Sequence record: PZ168832.1
Length of the DNA: 64,000 bases
Strand: one strand, 5' to 3'
Origin: a phage
The notes beneath the pieces are model-generated. The model worked only from the letters and a program-made list of their open reading frames with translations, was not told the origin of the DNA and ran no database searches. The translations under genes were made by a program, and so were the position numbers. Each line of letters starts with the position of its first letter. Positions within the stretch are counted from its first letter, which is position 1. Positions 24,287-57,605 of the stretch are shown one piece after another.

Positions 24287-24628
24287 TTAATTTCTTTTGA
24301 GAGGAATATGACGGTGGCTGCCATTATTTGGTTTAATAATGAGCATAAAAACGATTAGAAAGATGATGGCTGATATACTTAATTCAATCAGCGCGGCTTG
24401 AGATATGGATTGGTCTTCGTGATACTGCTTTTGCATTTCCGCTTTCTTCTGAGCGCAAACTTCAGGTGATATATAATCGCCTTTTGAGTTGCCATAATAA
24501 ATCTCGCCATTCTCAGAAATAAGTCTGCCGCAAATATCAGTTTCAGCCTTTGCGCTTGACATCATAATGACGGTGCCGATGATAGCGGCAATTGTCCAGA
24601 TTAGCAGTTGTGATAAAGTGTTGTTCAT
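24287..24628 (-). CDS. Membrane/secreted protein (N-terminal signal or anchor, C-terminal TM)
   Basis: AAAGAGG RBS then ATG at 24628; MNNTLSQLLIWTIAAIIGTVIMMSSAKA ... AALIELSISAIIFLIVFMLII. Confidence 0.45.
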   Translation of the reverse strand: MNNTLSQLLIWTIAAIIGTVIMMSSAKAETDICGRLISENGEIYYGNSKGDYISPEVCAQKKAEMQKQYHEDQSISQAALIELSISAIIFLIVFMLIIKPNNGSHRHIPLKRN

Positions 24629-25058: not shown

Positions 25059-25269
25059 TTTCTTTCCACTCCACAAATGTGCTGCCACTTGTTTCTCTAT
25101 TTAGCAGGTATCTGCCGCGCATTCCATGAAGGCTGAATTCAACCGTCGATGGATTAGATTTTGAAAGCCACATCGCTTGACCGTCGAATGGTCCGCCAAC
25201 GCATGTGTATTTGGCTTTTGGCTCACTCCTTTTGGGCCGTTTTGCCCGCTCTTTGATTGATAGTCTCAT
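25048..25269 (-). CDS. Hypothetical basic protein
   Basis: 73-aa ORF with ATG. Confidence 0.4.
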   Translation of the reverse strand: MRLSIKERAKRPKRSEPKAKYTCVGGPFDGQAMWLSKSNPSTVEFSLHGMRGRYLLNRETSGSTFVEWKENGK

Positions 25270-25484
25270 CAGTCTTCACCTTGAGATTCAAGACAAGTAA
25301 GAACAAGCCATGTCATCGGAAGAATCAAAACCAGAGAAATAAGGGACCAGATGGACCAGCACAAGATGACAGACTTGAATGTGTGAACGTCGCCAAACGC
25401 AGCAGTGAAACAAAATCCCATCACGAAAGCAAGCGCGGTGGAGTGGTTATCAATGGCTTTGATGGCACGGTCGATGAGTTTCAT
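25269..25484 (-). CDS. Two-TM small membrane protein (holin-like candidate)
   Basis: GGAGG RBS 5 nt before ATG; two hydrophobic segments TALAFVMGFCFTAAFG and VILCWSIWSLISLVLILPMTWLVLTCL. Confidence 0.45.
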   Translation of the reverse strand: MKLIDRAIKAIDNHSTALAFVMGFCFTAAFGDVHTFKSVILCWSIWSLISLVLILPMTWLVLTCLESQGED

Positions 25485-44965: not shown

Positions 44966-45838
44966 TTGAAAAAGAGAATCCTTAAAGTCACCTTATCTAT
45001 GCCGGATGGCACAAGCCAAGTGCTTGATGAAGGATTGATGCTTAGATGCCGAATCAAAAAGGCAGCACTTTCCGTGCAAAATAAGGCCACAATCGAAGTC
45101 GCAGGATTGACAGGGTACTTGAGAGAGCACCTGCTTTCCAACTTCACCGCATTCAACAAACGTCTGCGTGATCAAGGCCAATTGGCGGCGAATTACGTCA
45201 ACGTAACAATTGAAGCTGGATATAGAGAAGGCAACGTTGTTAGCAGCAACTTAGTCTACAAGGGGCAAGTCACAACGGTCGAGATAACAGCGCCGCCGCC
45301 GAACATCGTCATACGCATCACTTGCTACACCAACCAGATAAACAGGACTAAGTTCATCACTCAAGCTGCACCGTCAAACCCAACATTCAAAGAGTTTGTG
45401 GAGTGGTCGGCAAAGCAAATGGATATTGATACTGTTATCTGCGATACTTCGATTAACAATCAGCGTCTTGTTAACCCAGGCCGCACAACATATGTTGCAG
45501 CCGCCTTGCTGCTTGAGATTCAGAACTATCAAAGGAACTCTATTGCGGCATATATCGATGATGATACGCTCATCGTCAAGGATAAAGACAAAATTCTGAA
45601 TCCAGAACAGATAACGGTGATTGAGGAATTTGTCGGAATACCGATGTGGAACGAGTGGGGCGCTGACTTCACTTGCATGTATAACGCGGATTTGAAGCTT
45701 GCCCAAGGTGTGAAATTCAAATCAGTCTTAAACCCAAGCTTGAACGACACCACATTCGTCATCATGCAACTTGAATATGATTTAGCAAGTCGTGATGACA
45801 TATTTACGGTGACGGGCGGCGTTGCACCATCGGCCTAA
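44966..45838 (+). CDS. Tail / baseplate hub-associated protein
   Basis: 290-aa ORF between the tape measure and baseplate genes; TTG start. Confidence 0.45.
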   Translation: MKKRILKVTLSMPDGTSQVLDEGLMLRCRIKKAALSVQNKATIEVAGLTGYLREHLLSNFTAFNKRLRDQGQLAANYVNVTIEAGYREGNVVSSNLVYKGQVTTVEITAPPPNIVIRITCYTNQINRTKFITQAAPSNPTFKEFVEWSAKQMDIDTVICDTSINNQRLVNPGRTTYVAAALLLEIQNYQRNSIAAYIDDDTLIVKDKDKILNPEQITVIEEFVGIPMWNEWGADFTCMYNADLKLAQGVKFKSVLNPSLNDTTFVIMQLEYDLASRDDIFTVTGGVAPSA

Positions 45839-52967: not shown

Positions 52968-53612
52968 ATGATTAATGCAAACGTAATATCTAAAGGGACC
53001 GGATGCAGCATGGATGTCGCAGAGAAATGGGTGGACCCTTTCAAGCAGGCTTGTGAGCACTACGGAATCAAAAGCAAGAATGCCATCGCGGCATTCCTTG
53101 CAAACGTAGGAGTAGAGACAGGCAGCTTGAGAACATTTGTGGAAAATCTCAACTACTCTGCACAGGGTCTTGCCAACACGTGGCCTAGCCGTTACAGCGT
53201 CAGCGGTCGTTTCGGTGGCGCACCAAACTCCTTGGCGTTGTCGATTGCCCGTAAACCAATGGAAATCGCCAATAATACATATGCAAACCGAATGGGAAAT
53301 GGTTCGGTAGCATCTGGCGACGGTTGGAAGTACCGTGGCCGTGGTGCCATTCAGCTGACTGGAAAGGACAACTATGCAGAGTATTCAAAGCAATCAGGGT
53401 ATGACGCCTTGAATAACCCTGACATTTTGACTGAGCCGAAATACATCGCTGACAGCGCGGCGTGGTTCTTCAAGAACAGCGGTTGCATTCCACTTGCCGA
53501 TGCGGGTGCATTTGATTCGACCGTGAAGCGGATTAACGGGGCCGCGCCGAATACGGCTAACCATGGGGATTTGCGACGGAAGCGTTACAAGGATGCACTA
53601 GCAGTTATGTAA
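52968..53612 (+). CDS. Endolysin, glycoside hydrolase family 19 (chitinase-like)
   Basis: AAFLANVGVETGSL and YRGRGAIQLTGKDNY match GH19 catalytic signatures; no signal peptide or TM. Confidence 0.8.
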   Translation: MINANVISKGTGCSMDVAEKWVDPFKQACEHYGIKSKNAIAAFLANVGVETGSLRTFVENLNYSAQGLANTWPSRYSVSGRFGGAPNSLALSIARKPMEIANNTYANRMGNGSVASGDGWKYRGRGAIQLTGKDNYAEYSKQSGYDALNNPDILTEPKYIADSAAWFFKNSGCIPLADAGAFDSTVKRINGAAPNTANHGDLRRKRYKDALAVM

Positions 53613-53637: not shown

Positions 53638-53850
53638 TTATTTCACGGCTTCAACCTGGACTGGCGGCGCGGAACTTGTATCAATGTCTGGCAAGTCGAA
53701 GTAATACCCCGCCATGCCAATCACGCCAACAATCGCGGCCCGTGCCACCTTGTTGCTAATTGACTCCCCAATAAGCTTTACCAACAGGGACAAGATTTGA
53801 GACGTCAAAGCCTTTTTCAGCCTTTTGTTTTCTTCCAAATCTTTCTGCAT
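53638..53850 (-). CDS. Small single-TM membrane protein
   Basis: GGTGG RBS then ATG at 53850; hydrophobic VARAAIVGVIGMAGYYF. Confidence 0.4.
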   Translation of the reverse strand: MQKDLEENKRLKKALTSQILSLLVKLIGESISNKVARAAIVGVIGMAGYYFDLPDIDTSSAPPVQVEAVK

Positions 53851-53864
53851 AACTACCACCCATG

Positions 53865-54407
53865 TCAACGCACATCCTGTGTCTTAACATTACCTGAAGC
53901 ATCTCTTAAGGGCAGTGGATAGTAGGCCATTTGGTAGTCTGATACGCCTTCAACATGATAAAACACGATTACGTCTTTGCTGTTGATGAGCATGTTAACG
54001 ACATCTGATTTATCTTCTGGAGTGAGTATGAGTGCGCCGCCTGTCCTGCTGTCTACTGCAACAGGGTATGTCTTGTCGACAAGGCCGCTGTCCAATGTAT
54101 TATACCTGACAACGATTTCAGCGGCATCAACTTTTGCAATTGACATTCCGAACACAAACGACACGACTTGGCGACCGCGATCATTCATTACGCACATCTT
54201 TTCCTTATCAAACCTTTCCTTTATCACATCATATTTGTTCCAGCAAAATTCGAACGATTGGCCGTTGTTAAAATATCTCGTTAACACTTTGGCATTACTA
54301 TTTGGCGGCGTAAACATACTTTCAGCCGCTGCACTTTTGGTGAAGAACAAGACTGTCAGCATAGCCATGATGGTGATCAAAACAATCTTTAAAGTTTTCG
54401 ATTTCAT
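53865..54407 (-). CDS. Secreted / periplasmic protein, unknown function
   Basis: N-terminal MKSKTLKIVLITIMAMLTVLFFTKSAAA; AAAGGTG RBS. Confidence 0.5.
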   Translation of the reverse strand: MKSKTLKIVLITIMAMLTVLFFTKSAAAESMFTPPNSNAKVLTRYFNNGQSFEFCWNKYDVIKERFDKEKMCVMNDRGRQVVSFVFGMSIAKVDAAEIVVRYNTLDSGLVDKTYPVAVDSRTGGALILTPEDKSDVVNMLINSKDVIVFYHVEGVSDYQMAYYPLPLRDASGNVKTQDVR

Positions 54408-54480: not shown

Positions 54481-54511
54481 AATAAAAGAAAAGCCGGAGA
54501 TTTCCGGCTTT
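54481..54511 (-). terminator. Rho-independent terminator after the ligase gene
   Basis: Stem AAAGCCGG/CCGGCTTT, 6-nt loop, followed on the minus strand by a T-rich tract. Confidence 0.5.
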
Positions 54512-55548: not shown

Positions 55549-56172
55549 TTATTGTCCTGTAACTTCTCTGATCACACGGTCTTCAAGTTCCAGCTTCTTT
55601 ACCATTTTGCAGGAGTGCTCATAAGCTGGATCAGTCGATTTGATAAACGTGCCGTTGTACATGACACCTTTGCGGTCCTTGATGTCTTCGTAGGCCGCTT
55701 GCGCACAGTCGGATAATCGAAGGCCATAATCATGAGCTACGCCGGAAAGGTAATCGACTGCGGCCATGATAGTGACGTCAATATCCATGGCCTGATTCTT
55801 GGCAATAGCATCACCAAGTCGTCCAAGGGTCTTTGCCAGGCGAAGGATAAATGAATGAGGGTGAGCGCCCTTATCAGCGCAACCGCCGCCATTAATGTTT
55901 TCGATTTCAGTACCGTTTTGCGCTGCCAGGATGGCCAACACAACAAGGCAATCGCCGATGTCGTCCTTAATTGCCGCCTGCAAGTCACAGATGGCCTGCT
56001 CTGTATATCCAATTTCAGGGTCAAAGAACACAAGGTCATGGAGTTGATCAACGTGGTCGGTTAACTCCCCAAACTCGCTGATAAGCTTCGGATATTGGTC
56101 TTTAAGGTCGCAACCTTGGATGATGTTACGGTCAGAAGCCCACTGGCGAATGTTTGCATAAATCTGGTTCAT
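55549..56172 (-). CDS. MazG-like nucleoside triphosphate pyrophosphohydrolase
   Basis: EFGELTDHV and IGDCLVVLAILAAQNG fit the MazG helical EExxE / D motif pattern. Confidence 0.6.
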   Translation of the reverse strand: MNQIYANIRQWASDRNIIQGCDLKDQYPKLISEFGELTDHVDQLHDLVFFDPEIGYTEQAICDLQAAIKDDIGDCLVVLAILAAQNGTEIENINGGGCADKGAHPHSFILRLAKTLGRLGDAIAKNQAMDIDVTIMAAVDYLSGVAHDYGLRLSDCAQAAYEDIKDRKGVMYNGTFIKSTDPAYEHSCKMVKKLELEDRVIREVTGQ

Positions 56173-56687
56173 TTATTTTCCTTTGATGCATTTAATTGAT
56201 CGATTTTTATTTTAGCCTGATTATAAGTATCAATCAAGCTATTAACTTTCTCTTTTAATCGGTTTGTTTCTGCGGCGAACTGAACAAGAAATCTGACATC
56301 CTCTTCTGATAGTCCACAGTTTCCTTCTGGGATAGAGAGGCGTCCAGTGGTCGCAGAGTCGGGCACACTCCTGAGTAACTCACGGGAGCAGCTGAGTTGC
56401 TCGCGCAGCTTGATATTCCCAGACTTGTAACGAGCAATAGTGTCATCAGCAACCAGTTGCGCTTCCTGGCGACCCTTCTCATATGCCGATGCCGATTCAA
56501 CCTGTAAAGTTGCAATTTGCTCTTCGAGTGCATTTATCTTGTCCTTACGCTCATTAAGCGATGTCAGATATTGATTATCCTTGGCCAGTGATGCGTTGGT
56601 TTGCTGCAGGTCTTCAACGTATGATCCAGCGGCAAACGCACCAACAAGGGCCAGAATCTTCAGGAGCGGTACAATTCTTTCTATCAT
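56169..56687 (-). CDS. Inner-membrane spanin (Rz-like)
   Basis: N-terminal TM LLKILALVGAFAAGS, long coiled-coil region, embedded +1-frame lipoprotein gene; GGTG RBS. Confidence 0.6.
   Translation of the reverse strand: MIERIVPLLKILALVGAFAAGSYVEDLQQTNASLAKDNQYLTSLNERKDKINALEEQIATLQVESASAYEKGRQEAQLVADDTIARYKSGNIKLREQLSCSRELLRSVPDSATTGRLSIPEGNCGLSEEDVRFLVQFAAETNRLKEKVNSLIDTYNQAKIKIDQLNASKENK
56255..56482 (-). CDS. Outer-membrane lipoprotein spanin (Rz1-like), fully embedded in the Rz frame
   Basis: MRRVARKRNWLLMTLLLVTSLGISSC: positive n-region, hydrophobic core, lipobox ISSC; Pro-containing mature part. Start ambiguous (ATG at 56533, 56482, 56446). Confidence 0.5.
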   Translation of the reverse strand: MRRVARKRNWLLMTLLLVTSLGISSCASNSAAPVSYSGVCPTLRPLDASLSQKETVDYQKRMSDFLFSSPQKQTD

Positions 56688-56744
56688 GATGCACCAGATA
56701 AATAAAAGGCCGCCAAACGGCAGCCTTGTTGATTTGATTGTCGA

Positions 56745-57605
56745 TTAAAACTCTTCTGCGTCGGTCGGAGTTTCATTGACAGGACCAGCGGCACCGCTTG
56801 CTTCTTCCTGCTTGCTGCGGTCGATGTTAACGTTACCGCCAACTACGTCGTTGTGGAATGCCTTGGCGACTTCGTACAGGCCTTTGTCCTGCACCAGACC
56901 TTCCAGCTCAAACTTCAGAACAGACCAGGTGTTGCCGTCTTTGGACTGGGATGCAGTACCCATGCGAACGATGTTCATAAAGGTCGGCGGCGTTTTCAGA
57001 CCCTGCGGAGTCTGAACTTTCTTCTGCTGCAGCGCGGTCATCAGCATGCGAGACGGCTTGATCATGGAAGAAGTCAGAGACAGCATTGCGCTACCAAATT
57101 CACCAGTTTCTTCGTTCAACAGAATCACAAAGTGGTTGCGTGTATCTGCGTAGTAAGGCGATTTCTTCTCGTGCACCTTGCCGTTTTCGTCTGGCACAAA
57201 CACCTTACCGTTGATCTCAACAGCGCGGCCTGCCGCGACTTCTGCATCAACGTGCTCTTTGGTGAATTCACCTTTAAAGCCTTTATCGTCGGACTCGCGA
57301 CCGCCCCAAAGAATGAAGGTGCGTTTGAATGCGCAAGGGATGATCTGCACGCCTTTCTTGCCGTCATACAACTCACCAGTAACGGTGTTGTAAAGCATGC
57401 CAGCTTTTGCGCCAGGAACGTGTTTTGGATCATCTTCGTCGACCATAGGAGACATCTTCTGCAGTACGACGATAAAAGGAATGGCATACGCATCGGCATC
57501 GGCACCTTCAAAACCAGCGCCAAAATCGGTCATGTCGACAAAATCAGCCATAGCGGACATCTGGGTGTTTTTCACTGCAACTTCGGTGGTTTCTTTCTTA
57601 GACAT
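56745..57605 (-). CDS. Putative ssDNA-binding / recombination protein (product uncertain)
   Basis: 286 aa; acidic C-terminus ending in Phe (ETPTDAEEF), a feature of T7 gp2.5-type and bacterial SSBs. Confidence 0.45.
   Translation of the reverse strand: MSKKETTEVAVKNTQMSAMADFVDMTDFGAGFEGADADAYAIPFIVVLQKMSPMVDEDDPKHVPGAKAGMLYNTVTGELYDGKKGVQIIPCAFKRTFILWGGRESDDKGFKGEFTKEHVDAEVAAGRAVEINGKVFVPDENGKVHEKKSPYYADTRNHFVILLNEETGEFGSAMLSLTSSMIKPSRMLMTALQQKKVQTPQGLKTPPTFMNIVRMGTASQSKDGNTWSVLKFELEGLVQDKGLYEVAKAFHNDVVGGNVNIDRSKQEEASGAAGPVNETPTDAEEF

Follow-up and report, generated by a model that had tools for sequence, protein, structure and literature searches.

Embedded two-component spanins were catalogued for the Wifcevirus phage ECML-117 by Kongari et al. 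in 2018, where its i-spanin and o-spanin are singleton families (BMC Bioinformatics 19:326, PMC6139136). The i-spanin is recorded there with a 24-aa N-terminal membrane part. The supplement to that survey gives the i-spanin as 172 aa and the o-spanin as 75 aa, encoded at 45462..45689, with a signal of 25 aa, the lipobox GISS|C and a mature part of 50 aa, and describes the pair as "best possible candidates" (PMC6139136). In the same survey, disulfide-linked spanin complexes appear as the general rule, the T4 spanin genes PseT.3/PseT.2 are located away from the holin and endolysin genes (Fig. 8 legend), and PB1-family phages use a unimolecular spanin with the lipobox AWAC (PMC6139136).

Here, we describe the corresponding locus in a 64,000-nucleotide stretch of phage DNA (PZ168832.1; the whole stretch is referred to as the window). 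The DNA comes from an E. coli myophage of the Wifcevirus type, with 98% identity to vB_EcoM_WFC, Bas99 and FEC19. A 3.8-kb stretch around the spanin locus matched 29 deposited E. coli/Shigella Wifcevirus myophage genomes at 93.6-98.4% identity, among them vB_EcoM_WFC, FEC19, ECML-117, Mansfield and Bas98-101; the 661 bp carrying the spanin pair matched all 29 at 97-99%. The ECML-117 locus is orthologous, with 97.4% of nucleotides identical across the region and 98.8% identity between the Rz proteins, which differ at T60S and L166F. The two loci share the embedded architecture, the GISS|C lipobox context, the 50-aa length of the mature o-spanin and the flanking genes; the mature o-spanins differ at position 10 (S in the window, N in ECML-117) and position 48 (Q versus R).

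Both genes are annotated in the GenBank records of Mansfield and of Bas98-101, the latter as "Rz-like spanin" and "o-spanin" at homologous coordinates. "Rz-like spanin" is also the RefSeq name for the outer gene, and the Mansfield record cites UniProt I7ATQ8 for the ECML-117 spanin. In many other deposited Wifcevirus records, one or both genes are labelled "hypothetical protein", or the embedded o-spanin is omitted. The 2018 survey listed the pair in a near-identical phage, and public records carry its annotation; it is thus already known and ordinary rather than new. Our literature search returned no published experiments on Wifcevirus lysis genes, no paper on Wifcevirus holins and none on phage Mansfield and its spanin; the BASEL paper makes no mention of lysis genes. 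The spanin locus comprises the following features, in window coordinates.

55549..56172, minus strand: MazG-like pyrophosphatase gene (PHROG 1992, E 1.4e-61), its ATG overlapping the Rz stop codon (ATGA)
56169..56687, minus strand: i-spanin (Rz-like) gene, 172 aa, recognised by its ORF, PHROG 1327, homologues, AlphaFold2 helices and invariant Cys
56619..56675, minus strand: stretch coding for the predicted transmembrane helix at the N-terminus of the i-spanin (Kyte-Doolittle over 19 residues peaks at 1.8, at residue 5)
56255..56533, minus strand: embedded o-spanin (Rz1-like) ORF, 92 aa, in the +1 frame and wholly inside 56169..56687
56405..56416, minus strand: lipobox codons I-S-S-C, conserved in relatives, the predicted lipidated Cys being followed by Ala
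56542..56546, minus strand: AAGGA, a Shine-Dalgarno-like motif 8 nt upstream of ATG 56533
56696..56727, minus strand: intrinsic-terminator-like hairpin and T-run found by a scan (9-bp stem, 4-nt loop, fold of -15.9 kcal/mol)
56745..57605, minus strand: Pam3_Gp34-family gene upstream of Rz, assigned by family match

The 172-aa product possesses a sole strongly hydrophobic stretch, the N-terminal segment IVPLLKILALVGAFAAGSY at residues 5-23, which is helical in the AlphaFold2 model. The model, computed from a shallow alignment of 6 sequences (mean pLDDT 80), places helices at residues 5-106 and 128-171, separated by an unstructured region at 107-127; the linker between the helices contains Cys/Pro, and C100 and C124 are invariant among relatives. 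This predicted helix layout is the i-spanin build. The protein matched PHROG 1327, "Rz-like spanin", at E 1.2e-26, with residues 6-160 aligning to positions 9-156 of the 158-position profile. A Pfam scan at E <= 0.1 did not match it to PF03245 Phage_lysis, the lambda-type Rz family, and for this reason we do not file the protein there: by analogy, it is predicted to work like lambda Rz, yet from outside that sequence family. Pfam and NCBIfam scans returned no significant family match for either spanin product, and only PHROGs recognises both. Neither Rz nor the Pam3_Gp34-like neighbour retrieved anything usable from the PDB by sequence search.

With tblastn we detected remote i-spanin homologues, 29-33% identical across 85-89% of the protein. 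In Burkholderia phage Mica, the homologue is part of a cassette with a class II holin, a SAR endolysin and an o-spanin that is likewise embedded, and in Yersinia phages P840 and PY54 it is the Rz of cassettes that also encode a holin and a lysozyme. These homologues differ from the i-spanin in the window in their place within canonical cassettes, where they immediately follow the genes for holin and endolysin.

The embedded ORF starts 154 nt from the Rz start, which places it in the +1 frame. Its product carries MRRVARKRNWLLMTLLLVTSLGISS|CA, with a basic n-region, a hydrophobic core, a lipobox and Ala at +2; judged by a rule-based pattern, the segment LLVTSLGISS|C matches the PROSITE PS51257-style lipobox rule. 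The lipobox reads AISGC, AISSC or ATSSC in four diverged relatives and GMSSC in Bas99 and WFC. The precursor is 92 aa long from ATG 56533 or 75 aa long from ATG 56482. With either start, the mature o-spanin has 50 residues, including a second Cys; it is longer than lambda Rz1 and, with Pro at 4/50 residues, differs from it in not being proline-rich. The o-spanin matched PHROG 4306 weakly (E 8e-4).

Both in-frame ATGs are conserved. Kongari et al. used the second, ATG 56482, for the 75-aa form of ECML-117 (PMC6139136), whereas the GenBank annotators of Mansfield and Bas99 used the first, ATG 56533, for the 92-aa form; the Mansfield record annotates a ribosome binding site at AAGGA. The AAGGA motif and ATG 56533 are kept in 5/5 diverged sequences, while the Rz residues that overlap this ATG vary (N-A, Y-D, H-D, D-D, N-E). 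The downstream ATG falls in an invariant Rz "YE", with no Shine-Dalgarno motif nearby. Given the AAGGA motif and the preservation of an ATG whose overlapped Rz residues vary, we favour ATG 56533 as the probable o-spanin start.

We judged the pair by the Summer 2007 and Kongari 2018 criteria for an embedded two-component spanin. On the i-spanin side, the sequence predicts a single N-terminal transmembrane domain (TMD) followed by a mainly alpha-helical periplasmic domain, and both partners offer periplasmic cysteines for intermolecular disulfides, C100/C124 of Rz and the second Cys of the o-spanin. The organization is that of lambda Rz/Rz1, in which an o-spanin lipoprotein gene likewise lies wholly in the +1 frame of the gene for a type-II inner-membrane protein, the periplasmic domain consists of two helical segments and a linker, and both partners have periplasmic cysteines. 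An earlier, sequence-only reading of this DNA had called the outer ORF a coiled-coil membrane protein, which the N-terminal hydrophobic segment and the two long AlphaFold2 helices bear out; the lipoprotein ORF that it placed wholly in the +1 frame of that gene, with an ISSC lipobox, proved correct in coordinates, frame and lipobox.

The pair lies in a leftward string of genes that runs from DNA polymerase through helicases, DUF7307, the Pam3_Gp34-like gene and the terminator hairpin to Rz/Rz1, the MazG-like gene and ligase. After ligase, the string continues with a terminator, a 180-aa secreted protein and a 70-aa protein, and converges on the GH19 endolysin gene, the last gene of the rightward structural operon. 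The features at this end are listed below.

52968..53612, plus strand: GH19-type soluble endolysin gene (PF00182, 31.3 bits against a cutoff of 25.5; PHROG 181 endolysin, E 1.9e-70)
53638..53850, minus strand: gene for a 70-aa small protein, a holin or lysis-accessory candidate (PHROG 5165; PA1-LRP homologue; adjoins the endolysin gene)
54490..54511, minus strand: terminator-like hairpin after the ligase gene, found by a scan and annotated in WFC and Mansfield

In a canonical cassette, the spanin genes adjoin those for holin and endolysin on the same strand. Here, the spanin gene and the GH19 endolysin gene are 2556 bp apart on opposite strands with four genes between them. Unlike in lambda, the spanin gene does not close a holin-endolysin-spanin cassette but sits between replication-module genes, behind a terminator. 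T4 PseT.3/PseT.2 differ from the pair in being separate, non-overlapping genes of unrelated families, and in T4 all lysis genes are scattered, while here the endolysin may still adjoin a holin candidate. The gene order around the pair is kept in 4/4 diverged metagenomic relatives (L006-L009); in two of these, L006 and L007, the endolysin has been swapped for a different type (PHROG 90) at an unchanged position. This conserved synteny upholds the sequence-only reading in placing the pair within replication and nucleotide-metabolism genes and away from the endolysin, and the distance that it gave to the GH19 endolysin on the other strand, about 3 kb, agrees with the measured value. Of the flanking genes that it named, MazG stood; the other neighbour belongs to the Pam3_Gp34 family, and no functional evidence was found for its label "ssDNA-binding".

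The hairpin upstream of Rz and its T-rich tail stop 8 nt short of the Rz start codon. Equivalent hairpins occupy the same intergenic spacer in 4/4 relatives, and the terminator is annotated in the WFC and Mansfield records. The hairpin after the ligase gene closes the Rz/Rz1-MazG-ligase segment. A scan found no sigma-70-like promoter between the terminator and the Rz ATG, which are only 8 nt apart; promoter-like matches overall were no more numerous than in shuffled sequence. With no such site and so little space, transcription of the spanin genes would need to pass the terminator; they appear to be expressed by read-through together with the nucleotide-metabolism genes, and read-through of a conserved terminator would imply low spanin expression. 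As its ATG overlaps the Rz stop, the MazG-like gene probably shares a transcript with the spanin gene and is coupled to it in translation.

Taken together, the evidence makes it very probable that this Wifcevirus locus encodes an embedded two-component spanin that is functional. The sequence-only reading had proposed an embedded Rz/Rz1-type pair, and the open reading frames with their sorting signals, the family homology, the conservation of both frames and the synteny all support it. Among the points against are the lack of a match to PF03245, the o-spanin that is not proline-rich, and the replication and nucleotide-metabolism context.

An embedded frame can also arise by chance, in which case the +1 ORF would be unexpressed and the outer protein would act alone or not be a spanin. 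Among 20,000 versions of this Rz rewritten with synonymous codons, 16% contained an alternate-frame open stretch of 92 codons or more, and 2.3% a Met and a lipobox followed by at least 25 further residues, so that as evidence for the embedded ORF the single sequence is only moderately significant. The weak o-spanin family matches (E 8e-4 to 5e-3) and the want of a good Shine-Dalgarno motif at ATG 56482 also fit a chance frame. Against it stand the four diverged relatives, which were found on metagenomic contigs by protein search and whose Rz proteins are 53-66% identical to that of the window. In each of them, the +1 frame stays open over 103-106 codons, and the lipobox, in an unchanged position, is retained together with the second Cys and the majority of the mature residues. 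The relatives follow the mature consensus C.S.SAP..Y.GVCPTL.PL[DE][AS]SLS, the second Cys (in GVCPTL) being invariant in all five sequences; their mature o-spanins are 70-76% identical to that of the window, and identities across pairs, 67-87%, lie above those of whole Rz. At codons where Rz keeps the same amino acid, synonymous codon identity was 398/533 (75%) inside the overlap and 242/507 (48%) outside, in the same direction in 10/10 pairs. Such conservation of the synonymous sites of Rz inside the overlap is the textbook mark of a second coding frame, and the preservation of the upstream ATG and of AAGGA at 8 nt, although Rz varies there, likewise speaks against chance. We regard this comparative evidence as decisive: judged from the alignments, the embedded +1 frame is under selection, purifying selection is demonstrated for both frames, and a chance origin becomes extremely improbable.

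Accepting an expressed spanin-like pair, its main task could still be an early one at the envelope, such as superinfection exclusion or remodelling, with another factor disrupting the outer membrane at lysis. Such a role would explain co-transcription within the leftward replication and nucleotide-metabolism string, and it agrees with the ATGA coupling to MazG, with the lack of an own promoter after the terminator, and with the different disruptor, a u-spanin, of the related Pbunavirus (Kongari 2018). Nevertheless, the i-spanin is homologous to those of canonical holin-endolysin-spanin cassettes, no further candidate for a spanin came to light in the annotated relative, the T4 spanins also lie away from holin and endolysin, and nothing in the sequence points to exclusion; we thus hold an early role to be unlikely. 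A spanin acting at lysis leaves the arrangement of the lysis genes to be considered, and these could be loosely clustered where the late structural operon meets the leftward one, with the spanins four genes further along. The 70-aa gene is convergent with the endolysin gene and begins 25 bp beyond its stop codon. It is conserved beside the endolysin gene in Wifcevirus, Kylevirus and >280 Pbunavirus genomes, stays in place where the endolysin type is swapped (L006, L007), and has as its homologue in Pantoea phage PA1 the protein PA1-LRP, onto which the published PA1-LRP primers map exactly. Expression of PA1-LRP by itself was toxic, and its fusion to, or co-expression with, the endolysin enhanced killing (PMC11538084). 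However, these experiments comprised fusions and 24-h growth curves rather than a holin assay (PMC11538084), and the experimental support for PA1-LRP as a lysis protein is weak. The two hydrophobic stretches of the 70-aa protein in the window reach Kyte-Doolittle values of 1.1-1.7 over 19 residues, borderline values for a TMD; it matched PHROG 5165 only and no holin family, and ligase, MazG and the secreted 180-aa protein intervene between its gene and the spanins. A loose cluster is accordingly a serious possibility that nonetheless falls short of an even chance.

The gene for the 70-aa protein also bears on the sequence-only reading, whose statement that no holin is adjacent contradicts its own candidate, which is this very gene. 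The other holin candidate of that reading, a small membrane protein encoded at 25269..25484, has two clear TMDs and an acidic C-terminus, with no family match. No holin is annotated in Bas99, nor near the endolysin and spanin genes of Mansfield. The 111-aa protein at 24287..24622 combines a signal-like N-terminus with a TMD at the C-terminus; we considered it as a degenerate u-spanin of the PB1 type and set it aside, as it has no lipobox and homologues only inside Wifcevirus.

For the embedded spanin pair, we propose the standard two-component spanin mechanism with high confidence by analogy, and localisation, complex formation, timing and outer-membrane disruption would follow the lambda Rz/Rz1 paradigm. 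The 172-aa product would be a type-II inner-membrane protein anchored by its N-terminal TMD, and its periplasmic part would be two long helices with a linker containing Cys between them. The product of the +1 frame would be exported, cut by signal peptidase II at ISS|C, lipidated, and sorted by Lol to the outer membrane, a destination predicted from the Ala, rather than Asp, after the lipidated Cys. The i- and o-spanin would bind via their C-termini to form disulfide-linked complexes that span the periplasm, and the invariant Cys100 and Cys124 of Rz fit the disulfide rule. Held inactive by the peptidoglycan mesh, the complexes would fuse or disrupt the outer membrane once a holin has released the GH19 endolysin and the wall has been degraded. 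Transcription of the pair with the leftward replication and nucleotide-metabolism genes, at levels kept low by terminator read-through, may imply early or middle synthesis, which would be tolerable since spanins should be harmless until the wall is gone.

Pbunavirus, the most closely related well-studied genus, shares the synteny from DUF7307 and Pam3_Gp34 through the slot between Pam3_Gp34 and MazG to the MazG-like gene, ligase, the small protein and the convergent endolysin. Its u-spanin has the same role, outer-membrane disruption, and differs in type, being one polypeptide that carries a lipobox and, at its C-terminus, a TMD. In Pbunavirus (shane) and Kylevirus (PA1, as PA1-LVP), the slot of Rz/Rz1 is occupied by a 201-aa multi-TMD protein of PHROG 1544, with a glycine-zipper N-terminus and C-terminal TMDs. 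Its match to GTA_holin_3TM did not reach the threshold (E 0.018; 16 bits, cutoff 24.8) and serves as a lead only. A tblastn search of the window detected no homologue of the Pbunavirus slot protein, shane_51. With Rz/Rz1 at this position here and the 201-aa protein there, the content of the slot has therefore been exchanged between related genera. A broader interpretation, which we consider rather doubtful, is that the interval between the Pam3_Gp34-like and MazG-like genes might be a conserved, terminator-throttled lysis-gene slot of the PB1-like supergroup with exchanged content, holding an embedded two-component spanin in Wifcevirus and the 201-aa protein in Pbunavirus and Kylevirus, where a u-spanin would be encoded elsewhere, and that the PHROG 5165 protein might be the Wifcevirus holin.

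The practical relevance of the locus is mainly one of correct annotation, with little beyond; spanin genes matter for engineering therapeutic E. coli O157 phages and for interpreting lysis phenotypes. For the biology of PB1-like phages, the terminator before the spanins, the exchange of slot content and the small protein beside the endolysin would be useful starting points in the search for the holin, and an exchangeable lysis-gene slot, if true, would amount to an unusual, non-cassette logic of lysis timing.

Two small genes lie to one side of the endolysin.

53638..53850, minus strand: 70-aa protein of PHROG 5165, adjoining the endolysin; homologue of PA1-LRP
53865..54407, minus strand: 180-aa protein whose N-terminus carries a signal or anchor (MKSKTLKIVLITIMAMLTVLFFTKSAAA|ES); its neighbours are the ligase terminator on one side and the 70-aa gene on the other

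PA1-LRP of Pantoea phage PA1 has been studied experimentally (PMC11538084), and the published PA1-LRP primers map to the ORF homologous to the 70-aa gene. The latter is conserved next to the endolysin in more than 300 PB1-like genomes, annotated as hypothetical in every case. The 180-aa protein had no family match; PA1 has a conserved version at 37% identity, as do three of the diverged metagenomic relatives (L006-L008, identity not stated). At that position the Pbunavirus shane has no annotated counterpart, and its ligase-to-shane_48 gap is 280 nt, unannotated. The 180-aa protein may act in the periplasm as a partner of the 70-aa protein next to it, for instance as an antiholin.

The GH19 endolysin itself has been replaced in two diverged relatives, L006 and L007, which carry at the same position an endolysin of another family. 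Both retain the small protein next to the endolysin as well as the spanin pair further away.

L006 9065-9520 and L007 9078-9530, minus strand: 150-aa replacement endolysin, PHROG 90, with metallo-endopeptidase-like matches

What lies between the Pam3_Gp34-like gene and the MazG-like gene varies as well: in Pbunavirus and Kylevirus this slot is filled by a glycine-zipper protein with multiple TMDs, whereas the window has Rz/Rz1 there.

L010 2548-3153: 201-aa slot protein shane_51 of Pseudomonas phage shane
L012 2054-2659: 201-aa slot protein 'LVP' of Pantoea phage PA1

This slot protein belongs to PHROG 1544, with a GTA_holin_3TM match below threshold; a homologue sought within the window was not found. 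Elsewhere, one further membrane protein is encoded in a cluster of leftward genes for small membrane proteins, adjoining a tail-fibre gene.

24287..24622, minus strand: 111-aa protein; signal-like N-terminus, C-terminal TMD and, after the TMD, a basic tail

Its topology is similar to that of a u-spanin, but it lacks a lipobox, and its homologues are confined to Wifcevirus.

Within the spanin pair, the o-spanin start has been assigned differently, to the second ATG (75 aa) by Kongari 2018 (PMC6139136) and to the first (92 aa) by GenBank annotators.

56533 and 56482, minus strand: first and second o-spanin ATGs
56542..56546, minus strand: AAGGA (SD), 8 nt from the first ATG

The first ATG is kept although the Rz residues overlapping it differ. 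At the C-terminus (56255..56266, minus strand), the o-spanin of the window and other Wifcevirus isolates is four residues shorter than in the four diverged relatives, ending in QKQTD rather than QKQTGSE[IT]K.

A strong terminator-like hairpin with a T-run immediately precedes the Rz start codon, the listed motif ending 8 nt short of that codon.

56696..56727, minus strand: terminator-like hairpin and T-run
L006 5939-6000, L007 5941-6000, L008 5093-5151, L009 2009-2058: equivalent hairpins

The equivalents occupy a matching spacer of ~57 nt in all four relatives, despite Rz identity of only 53-66%. Terminator read-through seems to be required for spanin gene expression. At the other end, the Rz stop codon overlaps the MazG-like start codon as ATGA (56169..56172, minus strand), an overlap which suggests that a lysis gene is translationally coupled to a nucleotide-metabolism gene.
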